A stretch of 64,000 nt of DNA. Source: a virus. Taxonomy: Duplodnaviria; Caudoviricetes. The notes under the pieces are model-generated. The model worked only from the letters and a program-made list of their open reading frames with translations, had not been told where the DNA came from and did no database searches. Positions 7,352 to 49,802 of the stretch are shown piece by piece. The stretch is from positions 205,106-269,105 of the IMG/VR virus record IMGVR_UViG_3300037067_016777; one strand, 5' to 3'. Position numbers and translations under genes: made by a program. The number at the start of each line of letters is the position of its first letter. Position 1 is the stretch's first letter.

Positions 7352-7549
7352 TATAAATTAAATCATATTATCCTGGCAAGTTATTGGTATATTGATAGAT
7401 GGTTTTGTGATGCATAAGAGAACACTACATAGGAGAGTAGTGAAGTAGACAATGGCCGAAAACGAGTTTGCAGAAGCGAAGGTTATATCAGGAAATATAG
7501 TGGTGAAAAACTGTGTTATGTTTATTTAGGCAAATCTACCATAGTTTGA
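7352..7549 (+). pseudogene. Decayed C-terminal fragment of a Mom-like/GNAT domain, paralogous to 48289..49728
   Basis: Manual translation gives YKLNHIILASYWYID/DGFVMHKRTLHRRVVK*TMAENEFAEA/GYIRKYSGEKLCYVY, versus intact FALHHSVPADYWYVDLKGYVMHKRTLYGRAISLKMTEYEFAEKYGYARKYGGEKLCFIK. Frameshifts near 7397 and 7480; in-frame TAG at 7446. Confidence 0.85.
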
Positions 7550-7571: not shown

Positions 7572-10430
7572 ATGCCGACCTACCTTTCGCCGGGAGTTTA
7601 TCCTAGGGAAATAGACCTTAGTGCAGTTACTGGCCAAACTGGGCCGCTTCGTGCGGCATTTGTTGGAACTGCCAAAAAAGGTCCTCTGAATACTCCAGTC
7701 TTTGTAAGTGGTGCTCAACAGGCTATCGACACATTCGGAGAGCCGTTTGTCGATAGTTATCTGATGTATGCAGTCCTCGCCTATTTGGAGGAAAGCAATC
7801 AAGCATATGTCATTCGGGTTGGTATTGAATGCCAAGATGGACAGCCTGTAGAATTAGGCGATGTTTGTATTGATACTTCTGGATCTCGGGTGAACGGATG
7901 GGGTCGGATTCCAGTATTCACTGGTATCGATTACGGCAAATTACTTATGCGAGCTGTGTCGACAGCTTCGCCCGTTGTCTTTCATGATGCTGCTGTCGAG
8001 AACATAACGTTTACTGATGTTAGTGTGTCAGTTACTGATGGGCCAACCAGCGCAACATTGCAATTCACCGGCGAAACCGATCTAAGCGATAGCTATACTG
8101 GTTGCACTGACGACACTTTTTCATTATTCATTACTGGCGCTTCAGACGATGGATACATGATAAAGGGAGCAACATTCCAGCTATTCCGCAGCCGCGATAA
8201 TGCATTGATGGTTAGTGGTACTTTGGACGAGAAGGTAACGGGGGCTACGAGCACCAGTACTAATATTGTAATCGGTGACGGTCTTGAATGCAACATTCTT
8301 GTTACTGATGGCCGCCTTGACACCAATGACGTATTCTCGTTCACAGCAAAACCGTACAACAGAGAGCTAGAAGTAGAGGTTGAGGGTGTTGGTGGCACTT
8401 ATATTATGCCAGTTGCTACCTATACTTCAGCAGACACTCTAGTTGCCGCAATCAATCTGCTAATTGCAACTGAGGATTATGTTGCTGTTGCAGATACTGT
8501 TGCTAGTGTTGAATATCCAGAATTGCGTACGAAGGTTGCTGGGGATCGTATTCAGTTGATAGGATCATGTGCTTTTGCTTCTGAGGTTGGAGTGCAGCAA
8601 TATGCTTATGACATTCCACGTAGTTATTTGTATGGCTCTGATGCTGAACCATTTTTCATCAACAGCCAAAGTAATCGTGTAGCAATCGACATAATCCCAG
8701 CAGATAGAAGCGACACTATCAGTGTCGCTTTTACTATTCCTGTCGGAACGAATTTGTCAGCTACAACCATAGCAGCGGCCATTAATGGCAATGGGACTTA
8801 TGCTGGCGAGACATACTTTACATCATTTGCTATCACCGCTCCTGGCGATATTCCGCATGTTGTTGTTGTAACTTCAGATGGACATAGGCTTGATCAGCTC
8901 TATTTGAAGGCTAATTACTCCAACCTTAAGACATTGATGTTTGCCGAGGAAATCGGTGTACTTTCTCCTTACACGAAAGCATACCGTGGGTTTTCTGACA
9001 GTCGCGTGTCGCTGCCTGATACTGGTGAAATCACGCCATCTGTGCCGTTATCTTGCGAATTAGCTCCGAGCGGACCAGATTGTGCGCTCGACACAGCTTA
9101 TTTCGCCAATATTGTCGGATGGTTTGTCGCATCGAGCGCTGGGACGTGGTTGGACGATTACACTCTGACGCTCTCACTGCAGACTCAAATTGCAGGCAAT
9201 GCGGCTGCACGTTATCAGTTAACTATGACTGATCCAGACGGTGCTACTGCCGAGAGCATTCAAAATCTCAGTTTCGATAAGACTGACGATCGATATATCG
9301 GTAATGTTTTGAATCCTGGCTCCGCTTACGGTGGAGTTAGTGGTAATGAGTTTATCAATTGGGAAGATCGGCCATCATTCTTAAATAATGATGAACTTGA
9401 TCCAAGTACCTACGAAGTTAGGCAGCCTGCACAGTTGTCGAAGCAGATGTTTGTTGGTGGTACTAATGGCATACCGGTAGATCCAGCATATTCGAGCGAA
9501 TTGGATGCTGCGATTATTGGTAATGCACAAGATTCAAGCGGCATGTATGGTGTGCAGAACTCTGAGACTTATGACATTAATTTGCTGGTAGTTCCAGGGA
9601 TGACATCTGGTGCGGTCATTGGCCAAGGATTGCAACTGTGTGAAAGTCGTGGCGATACCTTGTTTGTCGTCGATCCGCCGTTCGGTCTTCGCCCACAGCA
9701 GGTTGTCGATTGGCATAATGGGATGTTGTTATCTGATCTTTCAGCTGCAATCAATAGCAGTTATGGTGCATTGTATTGGAGCTGGGTGAAGATTTATGAC
9801 CAGTTCAGCAAGCAATACATTTGGGTTCCACCATCTGGTCAGGTTGCTGGAGTTTTTGCTCGTACTTCCAATGTGGCAGAGCAATGGTATGCCCCTGCTG
9901 GTATCAATCGCGGAGTTTTGAATACAGCATTGGACGTTGAATACAACCCAAGCCAGGGAGAGCGTGATCTGTTGTATGGTAGTGGTAATGCTGTCAATCC
10001 ATTGGTATCATTCCCGAAAGATGGTATCGTGGTTTTTGGGCAGCGAACACTGCAACGATCTACCACAGCACTAGATAGAGTAAATGTGCGGATGCTGTTA
10101 ATTTACTTAAAGAAGAATCTGATTCAAACGCTCAGATCATTTGTGTTCGAGCCAAATGATGCTACTACTTGGGCGCAGGTCAGAACGCTAGTTAATCCAT
10201 TTTTGGCAGATATCCAAGCACGTCGTGGACTTGACGCTTACAACGTGGTTTGCGACGAGTCAAACAACACACCGGCGAGACGAGACCTTAACCAATTGTG
10301 GGTATCGGTTTTCATTAAGCCGACGAGAACTATCGAATTCATCGTGCTTAATCTCGTTGTGATGCAGTCTTCAGCTTCCTTTAGTTCAGAGGAAATCTTG
10401 GCTGCTGGTGGTGTCGTAGTAAGCGGGTGA
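7572..10430 (+). CDS. gp18: Contractile tail sheath protein (T4 gp18-like)
   Basis: N-terminal YLSPGVYPREID; C-terminal WYAPAGINRG, GQRTL, RVNVRMLL, FVFEPND, IKPTRTIEFI. Confidence 0.95.
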   Translation: MPTYLSPGVYPREIDLSAVTGQTGPLRAAFVGTAKKGPLNTPVFVSGAQQAIDTFGEPFVDSYLMYAVLAYLEESNQAYVIRVGIECQDGQPVELGDVCIDTSGSRVNGWGRIPVFTGIDYGKLLMRAVSTASPVVFHDAAVENITFTDVSVSVTDGPTSATLQFTGETDLSDSYTGCTDDTFSLFITGASDDGYMIKGATFQLFRSRDNALMVSGTLDEKVTGATSTSTNIVIGDGLECNILVTDGRLDTNDVFSFTAKPYNRELEVEVEGVGGTYIMPVATYTSADTLVAAINLLIATEDYVAVADTVASVEYPELRTKVAGDRIQLIGSCAFASEVGVQQYAYDIPRSYLYGSDAEPFFINSQSNRVAIDIIPADRSDTISVAFTIPVGTNLSATTIAAAINGNGTYAGETYFTSFAITAPGDIPHVVVVTSDGHRLDQLYLKANYSNLKTLMFAEEIGVLSPYTKAYRGFSDSRVSLPDTGEITPSVPLSCELAPSGPDCALDTAYFANIVGWFVASSAGTWLDDYTLTLSLQTQIAGNAAARYQLTMTDPDGATAESIQNLSFDKTDDRYIGNVLNPGSAYGGVSGNEFINWEDRPSFLNNDELDPSTYEVRQPAQLSKQMFVGGTNGIPVDPAYSSELDAAIIGNAQDSSGMYGVQNSETYDINLLVVPGMTSGAVIGQGLQLCESRGDTLFVVDPPFGLRPQQVVDWHNGMLLSDLSAAINSSYGALYWSWVKIYDQFSKQYIWVPPSGQVAGVFARTSNVAEQWYAPAGINRGVLNTALDVEYNPSQGERDLLYGSGNAVNPLVSFPKDGIVVFGQRTLQRSTTALDRVNVRMLLIYLKKNLIQTLRSFVFEPNDATTWAQVRTLVNPFLADIQARRGLDAYNVVCDESNNTPARRDLNQLWVSVFIKPTRTIEFIVLNLVVMQSSASFSSEEILAAGGVVVSG

Positions 10431-10450
10431 CAGTCCGACGCGACGAATAG

Positions 10451-10483
10451 ACGGGAGGGCCAGCTTTCGCTGGCCCTCTTCGT
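10451..10483 (+). terminator. GC-rich hairpin after the sheath gene, possibly a bidirectional terminator
   Basis: gggagggccagc-tttc-gctggccctctt stem between the convergent sheath and HNH genes. Confidence 0.65.
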
Positions 10484-10502
10484 ATAAAGATATCACACTT
10501 GA

Positions 10503-10655
10503 TTTAGATAAGCATGGACGGCATCGGTCAAGTGGCTATATAAGTGGTTCACTAAAATTATCAATAATCTGTTGATGGTTTAGATAAGTGCGAACAGCAT
10601 CGGTTAAGTGGTTATCTACAAGTGGCTCGCCAAAAGTATCGATAATCTGCTGATT
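10503..10655 (-). repeat. Tandem duplication (about 76-78 nt units) of a tail-sheath-like coding segment at the 3' end of the HNH gene
   Basis: tttagataagcatggacggcatcggtcaagtggctat (10503) versus tttagataagtgcgaacagcatcggttaagtggttat (10579). The distal copy has a 2-nt deletion that creates the HNH stop codon. Confidence 0.85.
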
Positions 10656-11663
10656 GCTTGTGATAACGATGTTGTTGTGTGGGCATCTACCATAGAGGCC
10701 CTTAGCTTTATTACAATTTGCACACAAAAGCTGCAAATAATCTGGATAATCATTAGCGATAATCCAACTAGCAGTTACCTGTTTAACCTCTTTGCGATGT
10801 TCGTTACCATCGTTGTTGATATGATCAAATTCTAAGAAGGCCCAATTAGACTCACCGCAGCAAACGCATTTACCACCGTAATGAGCAATAGCTTTTAATC
10901 GTATTTTGCGATTTTTGTTGTATGGTATAATATCTTTACAATGAGGACAAACTTTGTAATTAGCAACACCGCGATTACAATTCGCACACAATATTCTTAG
11001 ATCAGTTGGGAATTTATGTCTTATTATCCAACTCATCATATGCATACCAACTAGACGTCGATGACGCTTGCCGTCGCCGTTAATGTGATCTACTTCTAAA
11101 AATTCGTAAGTTGTCTCACCACAGCATGCGCATTTTGCACCATAACGATCCAGAACTTTTTCACGGTCTCGACGCCATTTGCGTTTGCTAGCTTCTACGT
11201 GAATGTCGTTACATTTCTTACAGCGTATTGATTCGTCAACAGATAAGTCAACGCCACATACTATGCATTGATTTTTTGCTCTGCGGTCATTGTATCGCTG
11301 CATAATAATCAACGTTTGATAAGCTGTATGGCTAGCACAATAAATCTTGCCTGGTAATGGTGCTTTGCCACATCTAGGGCATAATCCTTTTGCAATCCAG
11401 CGCTTATCATGGACGATGCGTTCTCTTTTGCCTTTCTCTTTACACTTATCGCACATTTTGCCTTTTGTGATGTGCTTCCCACACAAGCAAACTCCTATGG
11501 CTTGTCTGGCTTTCCGAGCAGCCTTTCGTCTCTCGCTTTTCCTGGTCAGACATTTAGAGCACGACGACTTCTCCGAATCGCGAGGACCACCGCACATCAA
11601 ACATAAGTTATTGGTGATACGGTGCTGACGCTGGAGAGGATATTCAGTTTTGCGATCTTTCAT
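10536..11663 (-). CDS. Free-standing HNH homing endonuclease-like protein with N-terminal CxxC repeats and two HNH domains
   Basis: Two copies of YG.KC.CCGE....FLE.DHIN.DG..HR...L..LCANCN, plus several CxxC zinc knuckles. Antisense between the sheath and tube genes. ATG 11663 preferred over the ORF-track start at 11693. Confidence 0.8.
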   Translation of the reverse strand: MKDRKTEYPLQRQHRITNNLCLMCGGPRDSEKSSCSKCLTRKSERRKAARKARQAIGVCLCGKHITKGKMCDKCKEKGKRERIVHDKRWIAKGLCPRCGKAPLPGKIYCASHTAYQTLIIMQRYNDRRAKNQCIVCGVDLSVDESIRCKKCNDIHVEASKRKWRRDREKVLDRYGAKCACCGETTYEFLEVDHINGDGKRHRRLVGMHMMSWIIRHKFPTDLRILCANCNRGVANYKVCPHCKDIIPYNKNRKIRLKAIAHYGGKCVCCGESNWAFLEFDHINNDGNEHRKEVKQVTASWIIANDYPDYLQLLCANCNKAKGLYGRCPHNNIVITSNQQIIDTFGEPLVDNHLTDAVRTYLNHQQIIDNFSEPLI

Positions 11664-11783
11664 GACGCACCTATGGTGAAAATGAACGTCCAATGATTAA
11701 ATACATTTCCACAAACATTGAAATTATGACGAGGGTCTTGCCCATCAATTTGGTGGTCTAACCAACCTCGAAGGAGGGTCTTC

Positions 11784-12290
11784 GTGCCAGGCTTCAACAT
11801 ATGTGGTACAGGTAGCGGGCCAGCCTCCAATTTGGAGACTCGTAGAAAACATCGCTGGGTTTTTCGAACCCTTGGTGATATTAGCTCCGCAGCTTTGCTG
11901 GTCTTACAATCAGCATCGCGGCCGAACTTTAAGTTCGCAGAGCCAGAAATGCACCATGACCAGGAAGTAGCTTACTTCGCGGGTAAGCAGACCTGGGAGC
12001 CGGTGAGTATGAAGTGGTATGACGTTGAGCAAAGCCCAGATGTGTCAGATACAATCTACGTGTGGTTGAACACGGTTTGTGAATTGACCACGGCCACTGT
12101 AGCTGCTCCATCTGTTTACAAGAAGCAAGCTACTTTGGAGATGATTGGTGCTTCTGGCAACACCACAGAGACTTGGACGATGTGTAATGCGTGGCCCAAG
12201 GAAGTGAACTGGGGTGACTTGGATTATACGGCGACTGATATCGTGACGATTGAAGCGACGTTGCGATATGATCGCGCTATGAAGAATTAG
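11784..12290 (+). CDS. gp19: Major tail tube protein (T4 gp19-like)
   Basis: AGKQTWEP...YKKQATLEM...ETWTMCNAWPKEVNWGDLDY...LRYDRA; strong SD AAGGAGG and GTG start. Confidence 0.9.
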   Translation: MPGFNICGTGSGPASNLETRRKHRWVFRTLGDISSAALLVLQSASRPNFKFAEPEMHHDQEVAYFAGKQTWEPVSMKWYDVEQSPDVSDTIYVWLNTVCELTTATVAAPSVYKKQATLEMIGASGNTTETWTMCNAWPKEVNWGDLDYTATDIVTIEATLRYDRAMKN

Positions 12291-12318
12291 TAATTGGTTC
12301 TTCGACGACAGAAATACC

Positions 12319-12365
12319 CGGCCCCACCACATCAAATCTAAAATGTGGTGGGGCCGATTTTATTT
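12319..12365 (+). terminator. Rho-independent terminator after the major tube gene
   Basis: Perfect 14-bp stem cggccccaccacat / atgtggtggggccg followed by attttattt. Confidence 0.8.
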
Positions 12366-12377
12366 GGAGACACTCAA

Positions 12378-12893
12378 ATTCCAGGCTTCAATATCGGCGA
12401 CGTCTATAGTTCTGAAGCACCAACAGCCAAGATCGAGTTGGCGCGCCAACATCGTTGGAAATTTGCGACCTTGGATCCATTGAAAGCAATACTAATATAT
12501 GCACATAAATCCGGCAGACCAAAAATAGAAATCGATAGGGCGACATTACATCATCAACAAGATTGTATTTATTTTCCTGGTAAACAGAAATGGTTGCCAA
12601 TTGATATAACTTTCTATCACACAGTTGGCAGTACTGATTCTGCTTTTGAGATATATAAATGGTGGTCGACAAATGTTATAGATATTACTAAATCTGTGAT
12701 TAGTTTGAAGAAACAAACATGTACCTTGGAATTGCTTGATGGCAATGACGCTGTAGTTTATAAATATATGATATATGGTTGTTGGCCGTCCAAAATTACA
12801 CCAGACGAACTAGATTATGCTTCGTCAAAGATTAGTGAAATCACATTTACGCTTGAAATGGATAAGGCAATTGAGCTACACGAGGAAGGGTAA
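12378..12893 (+). CDS. Tail tube paralogue 2 (gp19-like), probable ATT start
   Basis: (I/M)PGFNIG aligns with MPGFNICG of tube 1. SD GGAGA lies 7 nt upstream of ATT 12378. The ORF-track GTG at 12345 sits inside the terminator stem. Confidence 0.8.
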   Translation: MPGFNIGDVYSSEAPTAKIELARQHRWKFATLDPLKAILIYAHKSGRPKIEIDRATLHHQQDCIYFPGKQKWLPIDITFYHTVGSTDSAFEIYKWWSTNVIDITKSVISLKKQTCTLELLDGNDAVVYKYMIYGCWPSKITPDELDYASSKISEITFTLEMDKAIELHEEG

Positions 12894-12898
12894 TCGAA

Positions 12899-13444
12899 AT
12901 TCCAGGATTTATTGTTGCAACTGATGTTGGTGCCGGAATTGCTGCCACAGAGAACAGCTTAAAACCTGTTTATCAATATACCTGGGAAATTTTTAATCTG
13001 TTTGAAGATACACGCAACTTATTCCCAACAAAATTATTAGCTAAGGATGCTACATTACCAACATTTACTATCGCTAAAGATACGACAGATGGATCGTCTC
13101 TAGTCTATAAATATGCTGGGATGGTTACATGGGAAGATGTCAGGATTACTTTTTATGATGTTGTGGTTGATTCTTCTAATAGGGCGTCAGATATTATTAA
13201 GAGCTGGCGCGAAAGAGTGTGGTCAGCCGATACAGGTCTTAAAAGTCCAACAGATTACAAAAAAGATTCTATTATAAAAGTATACAATTTAGATTTTACA
13301 TCTGTGACAACATGGACTTTACACGGCAGTTGGCCGCAGATTGTCAAAGAGGGCGATTTGACATATACCGCAACAGAAGTGAAAGTCATTGAGGTTACTG
13401 TTGCGTATGATTGGGCCGATTCAATATCAACAGATGAAGAATAG
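12899..13444 (+). CDS. Tail tube paralogue 3 (gp19-like), probable ATT start
   Basis: Frame is open from TGA 12872 through the ORF-track ATG at 13121. It reads (I/M)PGFIV...YTWE...KYAGMVTWEDV...YKKD...WTLHGSWPQ...GDLTY. No ATG/GTG/TTG lies upstream of the PGF motif. Confidence 0.8.
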   Translation: MPGFIVATDVGAGIAATENSLKPVYQYTWEIFNLFEDTRNLFPTKLLAKDATLPTFTIAKDTTDGSSLVYKYAGMVTWEDVRITFYDVVVDSSNRASDIIKSWRERVWSADTGLKSPTDYKKDSIIKVYNLDFTSVTTWTLHGSWPQIVKEGDLTYTATEVKVIEVTVAYDWADSISTDEE

Positions 13445-48288: not shown

Positions 48289-49728
48289 CTAAAGCTGTTT
48301 AATAAAGCACAGTTTTTCACCGCCATACTTTCTAGCATACCCATATTTCTCGGCAAACTCATATTCAGTCATTTTAAGACTTATAGCCCTACCGTAGAGT
48401 GTACGTTTATGCATCACATATCCTTTCAGATCAACATACCAATAGTCAGCTGGCACAGAATGGTGTAGTGCGAAATTACTTGCTTTATAAATCGTTCCGA
48501 TATGTCCAACCGTTGTATCGGCATATGCGATTACAAGTTTGCAATCAGCGAATTTTAATGCTCTACTTATTATCCAGGTTGCGAAGTTATCTTTATGATA
48601 TGACGGATGAATACATAATCTAGACAATTCGCGAACTTCTTCGTCTTGCAATCCGAACTGTCCCGCTGTATTCTGGCGTAGTGGAGGACTGAAGACAACT
48701 ACAGCAATCAATTCATCATTCAAAAAAGCACCTATCGATCTTCCACCACGCCCTTTTCCGATATAATGATATAATATTAAGAAATCTGTAGCATTTGCAG
48801 CGCTGATTTCCTTGATTTGTACGTCGTTAAAATTAAATTCCTTTGTTTCTATACCGATTCCAAGCTTCAATTTAAGACGGTCTAGAACTCGGTCTTTACA
48901 ATAGAATTCATGCTCCCAAACATACATTATTTCATATTCTGGAAAATAACGAGAAATATAAGTGAATTTAGCTTTGTCATTTCGAGAAGATTTTGGTAAA
49001 GCATGCCAGTAATCTCCTTGGCACTCAACTAATATACTTTTACGATTTACTCCGGGTATCAGACAATCGAAAACATAATATCCTATCTGTGTCCGTTCAC
49101 TTTCTTTAAAATATTCAACACCGAGATCGTCTAGGAATTTATAAAGCATATGTTGAATATACGATATTTTGCCAGACTGGGCAGATCTCGCAATTGCCAT
49201 TTTAGTGCGATATTCATCATTTTTCCAGGCGCGACGAGCACCAGCTGCGCATAATGCTTTTACATCATCTGAATTCATTATTTTGTGGTGTAATGCTTTT
49301 AATTCTGGATTCTTCCAGTTTTTAATTGATATTTTTCTCAATTTCTCTCTTGCTGCTGTATCTGTATATCTCGCTCTTAATATTGATGATACGTCTACAC
49401 TTTTCATTCCTTCTTTTGTAGCGTCTTTTTGTTTGGCTTTGAATTTTTCATCTTTTAGTAAAATCGCAGTACTAATGACCCTTTCTGTACGATAAGTATC
49501 ATTTTCCCATTGTTTTTTCATACGACTAGATATTATATCTGATTCCAACTTCTTTACACATGACTGGCACAACCAAGGCATCTGATTATCGATCACTGCA
49601 CTTTTAACTCTTATAATAATAGATCGTGGTTTCTGACAGGTATCGCAGCGACAGATAACCTTTGGGCGCTTGCTGTTTGGTATGCTTGAATAACCAAATT
49701 CTTGTTCTGTCTTTGTCCAGTCAATCAT
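48289..49728 (-). CDS. Homing-endonuclease-like protein (basic helical repeats + Vsr/DUF559-like nuclease) fused to a Mom-like GNAT domain
   Basis: YVFDC...LVECQGDYWH...ND..K...VWEHE, then YHY...ELSRLC...IAYAD..VGH.GTIYKASNF. Confidence 0.7.
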   Translation of the reverse strand: MIDWTKTEQEFGYSSIPNSKRPKVICRCDTCQKPRSIIIRVKSAVIDNQMPWLCQSCVKKLESDIISSRMKKQWENDTYRTERVISTAILLKDEKFKAKQKDATKEGMKSVDVSSILRARYTDTAAREKLRKISIKNWKNPELKALHHKIMNSDDVKALCAAGARRAWKNDEYRTKMAIARSAQSGKISYIQHMLYKFLDDLGVEYFKESERTQIGYYVFDCLIPGVNRKSILVECQGDYWHALPKSSRNDKAKFTYISRYFPEYEIMYVWEHEFYCKDRVLDRLKLKLGIGIETKEFNFNDVQIKEISAANATDFLILYHYIGKGRGGRSIGAFLNDELIAVVVFSPPLRQNTAGQFGLQDEEVRELSRLCIHPSYHKDNFATWIISRALKFADCKLVIAYADTTVGHIGTIYKASNFALHHSVPADYWYVDLKGYVMHKRTLYGRAISLKMTEYEFAEKYGYARKYGGEKLCFIKQL

Positions 49729-49802
49729 TTTACTAGTAGATATATAGTGCTGTTGAATAGATCCACATTAAAAAATACTGTAAATTATACTATAGGTTGA
49801 TT

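Follow-up and report, generated by a model that had tools for sequence, protein, structure and literature searches.

A mobile HNH endonuclease gene of an uncultured jumbo phage carries a C-terminal peptide derived from a tail sheath gene

Why should a phage nuclease gene end in a peptide that resembles the tail sheath protein encoded beside it? The question was raised by an earlier note on the window analysed here, the final 64 kb (64,000 nucleotides) of a 269-kb IMG/VR contig whose completeness is estimated at 74%, and the locus was put forward there as a candidate new system. We find instead a known kind of element, with an unusual sheath-derived peptide at its C-terminus that is under selection. 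In what follows, W stands for this window, "the tail" for the C-terminal appendage of the nuclease, and W1 and W2 for its first and second copies in the window; five related loci bear two labels each (L079=L009, L080=L011, L084=L010, L087=L008 and L090=L012).

The window contains a T4-like tail module made of a gp15-like gene, the sheath gene, three gp19-like tube paralogues starting at position 11784, and a baseplate gene. The sheath gene (7572-10430, plus strand, 952 aa) matches Pfam Phage_sheath_1, Phage_sheath_1C and, over residues 27-83, Gp18_domIII_N, as well as phrog_23, tail sheath (E 4e-87). Directly 3′ of its stop lies a GC-rich hairpin (10453-10480), detected as a self-complementary blast match at 10455-10480, in the alignment of empty and filled sites, and in the RNA fold. 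Relatives retain this hairpin whether or not they carry the nuclease gene; it probably terminates the sheath transcript. The first tube paralogue (11784-12290, plus strand, Pfam Phage_T4_gp19) bounds the locus on the right. The three tube paralogues are consecutive (11784-13444) and each matches Pfam Phage_T4_gp19; the third is started only at an internal ATG in the ORF list. Between sheath and tube, on the minus strand, lies the double-HNH endonuclease gene (10536-11693), which counts 385 aa from a TTG, the true start being likely the ATG at 11663.

The nuclease begins with CxxC zinc-ribbon repeats, followed by two HNH/EndoVII-like domains, and matches phrog_2255, 'HNH endonuclease', in two stretches (E 4e-22). 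Its matches to Pfam HNH (19.3 and 15.9 bits) stay below the 21.4 cut-off, and an Endonuclease_7 match on each domain is also sub-threshold. Among 53 homologues, the invariant or near-invariant columns are C188, C191, D202, H203, C236, C239 and N240 in the first domain, and C276, C279, D290, H291, C324, C327 and N328 in the second, and the Asp-His...Asn motif and zinc-binding Cys pairs (CxxC...DH...CxNCN) are present in both. The AlphaFold model has a pLDDT of 88 overall, above 90 for residues 20-340, and below 50 for residues 343-385, which are left unpacked, one other sequence only covering the tail in the alignment. The top Foldseek rows for this model were mostly HNH (Cas9 HNH, Gme HNH, T5 SciA), every E value being above 0.1. 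By its CxxC pairs, Asp-His and distal Asn in each domain, the enzyme is like the HNH/T4 endonuclease VII-like beta-beta-alpha-metal nucleases (PF01844, PF02945; phrog_2255); it is unlike them in that its Pfam matches lie below the gathering score and that no significant match was found among solved structures. Two other classes were rejected. An intein- or intron-encoded endonuclease does not fit, as the gene lies between two others and has a start of its own, and Pfam and PHROG report no Hint domain; furthermore, the sheath-like piece begins no more than 2 codons from where the enzyme naturally ends, which leaves no room for an intron 3′ core. An RNA-guided nuclease of the IscB/Cas9 type was rejected because PHROG and Pfam searches revealed no RuvC or related domain.

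Translated from the minus strand, the nuclease gene ends in CPHNNIVITSNQQIIDTFGEPLVDNHLTDAVRTYLNHQQIIDNFSEPLI and a stop, and the adjacent frame reads SHLTDAVHAYLNQV, also up to a stop; the sheath at 7716-7787 reads QQAIDTFGEPFVDSYLMYAVLAYL. That the nuclease ends in an inverted, sheath-derived peptide adjoining the resident sheath gene, as had been claimed, was confirmed by translation and by searching all six frames of the 269-kb genome with the nuclease as query: apart from the nuclease itself, only the sheath N-terminus was hit (query 337-373, 49% identity, E 5e-5), and the match exceeds what chance would give. A codon-by-codon recount against sheath residues 49-72 also agreed with the earlier figures (about 63% for the DNA): the two peptides agree at 16 of 24 residues, with a changed codon at 11 of these 16, and the DNA is 63.9% identical. 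The homology covers sheath residues ~41-72 (codons 41-72, 7692-7787, plus strand), inside the Gp18 domain III N-terminal match. Based on alignments to sheaths, the junction codons NNIVITSN (10653-10676, minus strand), which directly follow the last Cys-Pro-His, probably mark where the sheath-derived piece begins on its upstream side; homology thus probably starts some 6 codons earlier than the 24-residue match, with IVITSN aligned to VFVSGA, or to TFVTSA in relatives. When 50,697 cultured phages were searched with the tail by tblastn, all seven rows were very weak (E 5-10), and five of them lay in jumbo-phage sheath genes.

The tail is present in two tandem copies. The enzyme C-terminus is NNIVITSNQQIIDTFGEPLVDNHLTDAVRTYLNH, then QQIIDNFSEPLI and a stop, and the text goes on one frame over. 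Copy 1 (10575-10652, minus strand), recognised by translation, codon alignment and a repeat finder, consists of 26 in-frame codons, QQIIDTFGEPLVDNHLTDAVRTYLNH. Copy 2 (10493-10574, minus strand), recognised by translation and the repeat finder, consists of QQIIDNFSEPLI, a 2-nt deletion, SHLTDAVHAYLNQV and a stop, so that only its first 12 codons remain in the nuclease frame. The repeat finder reported the blocks 10500-10542/10576-10618 and 10539-10581/10617-10659, each 79% identical; their spacings of 76 and 78 nt imply a 2-nt indel, in agreement with the broken second copy described previously. The TAG that ends the ORF (10536-10538) was created by the 2-nt deletion itself. A programmed frameshift into copy 2 was rejected by inspection, as CTT ATA TAG C allows no P-site tRNA re-pairing.

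The many codon differences had been taken as the sign of either a diverged sheath allele or selection at the protein level. To place these differences, sheath orthologues of sister phages, which have 0-2 aa differences, were compared over the same 24 codons: 10 to 14 of ~15 silent sites differ, with DNA 78-86% identical, and between the W and L009 sheaths the count is 14 of 14.8 silent sites. Over whole genes, pS between W and L009 is 0.72 for the sheath and 0.73 for the nuclease. Because orthologous sheaths differ at most silent sites and whole-gene pS is ~0.7, silent sites are saturated, and a copy taken within the family at or before the base of the tail-bearing clade would therefore look equally 'recoded'. 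On these sequence comparisons, we read the 'recoding' as ordinary age, for which neither a foreign allele nor a protective design is required. Of the two earlier proposals, protein-level selection holds, as detailed below, and the foreign allele is unneeded with saturated silent sites. The tail shares 16-18 of 34 residues with in-family sheaths and 8-13 of 34 with more distant ones, which points to an in-family sheath gene as the donor. With 16-18 of 34 residues against 16, no sheath allele among ~20 relatives is a clearly better match to the tail than the resident allele, so the closer foreign allele that the earlier note proposed to look for did not turn up; DNA identity of the tail to any sheath compared is 61-65%. 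For sequence scans in general, this is a reason for caution: a 'recoded' duplicate peptide seems designed, yet here results from saturated silent sites plus purifying selection.

We then considered how the tail is distributed. Among the 70 best homologues inspected, more than 60 are tail-less and stop 2-10 residues past the last Cys-Pro-His. A sheath-like tail was found in four places only: W, with two copies; P0004, with one intact copy; L009, whose single copy is interrupted at the second Gln codon, changed from CAG to the stop TAG; and L010, with a 17-nt remnant, still VDNHL, left after two internal deletions. In L008, the tail is replaced by another gene. The idea that HNH homologues might carry such tails is thus true of a small subclade, and the more than 60 others end near the Cys-Pro-His. 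Scanning 57 metagenomic loci brought up no further tails; the six IMG/VR matches to a degenerate DNA pattern were all unrelated, and residues 340-385, used for a word search across 5.8 billion proteins, matched nothing. The maximum likelihood tree reads (L011 without tail, (L010 relic, ((W, L008), (L009, P0004)))), with supports of 100/98, the tail-less L011 falling outside the tail clade, in an unresolved group that also includes P0006 and P0007. Since the tail bearers and the tail-less L008 belong to one clade, this means one gain followed by several losses, and the tree firmly supports a single origin of the tail, in this five-member subclade. The tail is dispensable: three relatives have recently lost it, through a stop, deletions or replacement. 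The stop in L009 is young, because the intact P0004 falls in the same 90% cluster as the L009-contig enzyme, and the frameshift of copy 2 is probably also young. In L010, the nuclease has in addition a premature stop (L010:8960-9010, …GLYGN and stop) that removes the last Cys-Pro-His, and seems to be encoded by a decaying homing endonuclease gene.

These losses are what one would expect of a neutral recombination scar, i.e. a sheath piece appended by accident, merely read through, and drifting to loss. The disruption of the tail in L008, L009 and L010, the frameshift in copy 2, the absence of a tail from all other homologues and the unpacked tail of the predicted structure all go in this direction. 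The pattern of substitutions does not. Homologous codons of tail copies were compared with simulations keeping the observed numbers of transitions and transversions, a test covering 14-23 codons in three pairs that are not independent: silent to replacement changes were 9:5 in 22 codons for W1 vs L009 (P 0.001), 9:5 for W1 vs W2 (P 0.013) and 7:4 for W2 vs L009 (P 0.005). Silent changes therefore dominate among tails, even though silent sites in enzyme and sheath are saturated. By hand count over the first 17 codons, W1 and L009 have a pS of ~0.7 and a pN of ~0.1, compared to 0.73 and 0.11 in the enzyme body, and they still share ~73% of bases and 12 of 17 residues, where a neutral stretch would now be near random. 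The tails of W1 and P0004 have ~70% protein identity (73% with the conserved RCPH included, 72% by tblastn), and the enzymes 78%. The recent date of the L009 stop also counts against a scar. We conclude that these codon comparisons point firmly to purifying selection on the tail peptide, nearly as tight as on the enzyme body, and the neutral scar seems doubtful to us. The earlier note had reasoned that a tail absent from close homologues would be a neutral relic: a 96%-identical copy does lack it, but this absence does not make the tail neutral.

Selection did not keep the peptide as it was in the sheath. At five helix positions where sheaths invariably have Tyr, Met, Tyr, Leu and Ala, tails have His, Thr, Asp, Arg/His and Thr/Ala; His, Thr and Asp are found in every tail retaining those positions, and the last two positions vary. 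From sheath to tail, the mean hydropathy of the helix goes from +0.66 to -0.45, and its hydrophobic moment from 0.55 to 1.22. Through these five replacements, a uniformly hydrophobic sheath helix became amphipathic. The net charge of the tail is -5, and that of the enzyme body +36. A co-variation between tail and resident sheath (Thr/Ile and Asp/Glu, in W and L009) was dropped, as the L010 relic has Asp-Asn and the L010 sheath Glu-Ser.

Could the tail act as a sheath mimic, its strand-loop-helix copy engaging the partners of that sheath part, be they protomers, an assembly factor or a host sheath sensor? If true, a mobile nuclease would be connected with tail morphogenesis or with escape from defence. 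The sheath origin of the tail, the constraint on its protein sequence and the QQxIDxFGEP loop, retained in the sheath and in all tails, are compatible with it. In established sheath structures, it is the extended N- and C-terminal arms that link subunits. The copied segment maps to the N-terminal core of Gp18 domain III (Pfam residues 27-83) and, judging from those structures, would not be among the linking arms. The remodelled helix also argues against mimicry, all five sheath-invariant positions being polar in tails, and a mimic could not discriminate self from rival because all relatives have almost the same sheath segment. We consider sheath mimicry unlikely.

The mobility of the gene was examined by retrieving 80 sequences related to the sheath C-terminus, flanks included, and inspecting the gap that separates the sheath gene from the tube gene. 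The nuclease gene sits in this gap in six loci (W, L079, L080, L084, L087 and L090). It is absent, and the gap just 34-220 nt long, in L082, L083, L085, L086, L088, L089 and many more distant relatives (>15 empty). In L078, whose sheath C-terminus is the closest to that of W (98%), the nuclease is replaced by a 238/248-aa gene without Pfam or PHROG match, and in L081 nearly all of it has given way to a 533-aa Mom-like/HNH 'homing endonuclease' (phrog_3339, Pfam Mom) that overwrote it, a 55-aa stub being left. In L009, a 132-aa ORF is inserted at the gap and cuts the tail short. The gap is a hotspot with interchangeable cargo (window 10431-11783; L078:5910-6757; L081:1023-2848; L009:9048-9603). 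Alignment of empty and filled sites places the cassette boundary ~12 nt past the conserved hairpin, meaning that the tail belongs to the cassette, not to the backbone.

The history of the cassette differs from that of its flanks. Between W and L008, nuclease DNA is 95.6% identical (dS 0.17), compared to 76% for the adjoining sheath DNA. A tract with sharp edges, from 10751 to 11800, is 94-100% identical to the L008 copy, with one 50-nt window at 90%, and is best read from this alignment as the recently transferred core of the cassette. Identity falls to 74-80% at 10651-10750, and is 68-92% (mostly 74-86%) in the tube gene. A recombination breakpoint is located in the 3′ end of the HNH gene (10651-10750), the last ~100 nt before the tail. 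This drop in identity means that the tail-bearing end and the body differ in recent history; an unequal crossover between diverged alleles could also account for the mere 79% identity of the tandem copies. Patchy presence at one site, together with a history discordant with the flanks, is the signature expected of a free-standing homing-type endonuclease gene.

Given this mobility, the sheath copy might have a role at the DNA or RNA level, by marking or decoying a homing target in the sheath gene, as an operator, or as a guide against rival sheath alleles. Some homing endonucleases do bind operator copies of their own target, I-TevI being an example, and this offers a precedent. Several observations go against such a role, which we hold to be highly improbable. 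The constraint on the tail spares third codon positions, the opposite of a base-level signal, and identity to any sheath is merely 61-65%. The insertion site is constant: in the identified neighbourhoods (W, L008-L013), the nuclease gene is downstream of, and convergent with, the sheath gene, mostly in the sheath-tube gap, and was never seen inside a sheath gene, so that the tail cannot well be a captured flank marking the homing target. The phage of L083, without nuclease, and that of L084, with a nuclease whose enzyme is truncated, share an identical 74-nt stretch at sheath codons 43-66. This identity and the constraint on amino acids speak against both a decoy or operator and a guide directed at a rival allele, two other uses suggested in the earlier note. 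As for an RNA guide, Rfam returned for the tail region only a below-threshold match to a terminator-like hairpin, the RNA fold signal there stems from the terminator hairpin only, and the protein has neither RuvC nor RNA-guided features.

How was the sheath piece captured? The tail-less sister allele (L011:5035-5046) ends with CAT CAA GCA TAG, and sheath codons 77-80 (7800-7811) read AAT CAA GCA TAT. A 10-nt identity, ATCAAGCATA, thus joins these sheath codons, just past the end of the homology, with the natural 3′ end of the tail-less allele, and the end of copy 2 is still AAT CAA GTG TGA. This may be a hint of the microhomology used in the capture; it was spotted post hoc, and would need a later 9-nt loss (the EES codons). 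Rearrangement via microhomology at the 3′ end of a nuclease gene is documented for the homing endonuclease locus SegB of phage T6 (PMC13096335).

We infer that an illegitimate recombination, possibly microhomology-mediated, took place in the ancestor of the small subclade. In this event, the last codons of the nuclease ORF would have received, in reverse orientation and without loss of frame, a stretch of ~100-125 nt from the 5′ region of a sheath gene belonging to the same uncultured jumbo phage family. The captured peptide was then held by purifying selection, its formerly buried hydrophobic helix was remade into an amphipathic one, and in W the tail module was duplicated in tandem, the second copy having been broken, probably recently. 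This whole account, in which a mobile homing-type HNH gene captured a sheath piece and kept it as a selected, non-essential C-terminal accessory module, has our preference with slightly better than even confidence. Counting against it, 3 of the 5 tail-clade lineages are without a translated tail, copy 2 is frame-shifted, and the tail is unpacked in the AlphaFold model. As to function, the acidic tail would most likely tune the DNA binding, the activity or the stability of this strongly basic enzyme.

The gene resembles the free-standing Seg and Mob genes of T4-type phages ('intronless homing') in being stand-alone, intergenic, patchy in relatives and discordant in its tree with the backbone. 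It differs from them by its two tandem HNH domains after zinc ribbons, by its orientation antisense to its neighbours, and by the selected C-terminal peptide from a structural gene; also, homing is here predicted from sequence. With T6 SegB (PMC13096335), it shares microhomology between the nuclease 3′ end and a neighbouring gene, an altered C-terminus and tandem repeats. The T6 case is a laboratory-selected direct amplification that truncates SegB, unlike W, in which an old, inverted capture would have extended the enzyme and then been selected. The locus would illustrate cleanly, in nature, how a mobile nuclease gene can take a piece of the structural gene next to it and make that piece a selected component of its product, and suggests one route by which homing endonucleases may acquire new C-terminal modules. 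Its natural tail-bearing, tail-less and broken variants offer material for testing the effect of the appendage on a homing endonuclease.

Finally, the Mom-like/HNH endonuclease that overwrites the nuclease in L081 has two counterparts in the window. A full-length homologue of the 533-aa protein is encoded at 48304-49746 on the minus strand (38% identity, E 3e-100). Just upstream of the sheath gene, at 7398-7475 on the plus strand, a 26-residue relic of a Mom-like/HNH endonuclease was found (54% identity, E 9e-4). With this relic upstream and the HNH gene downstream, traces of mobile nucleases are present on both flanks of the sheath gene.
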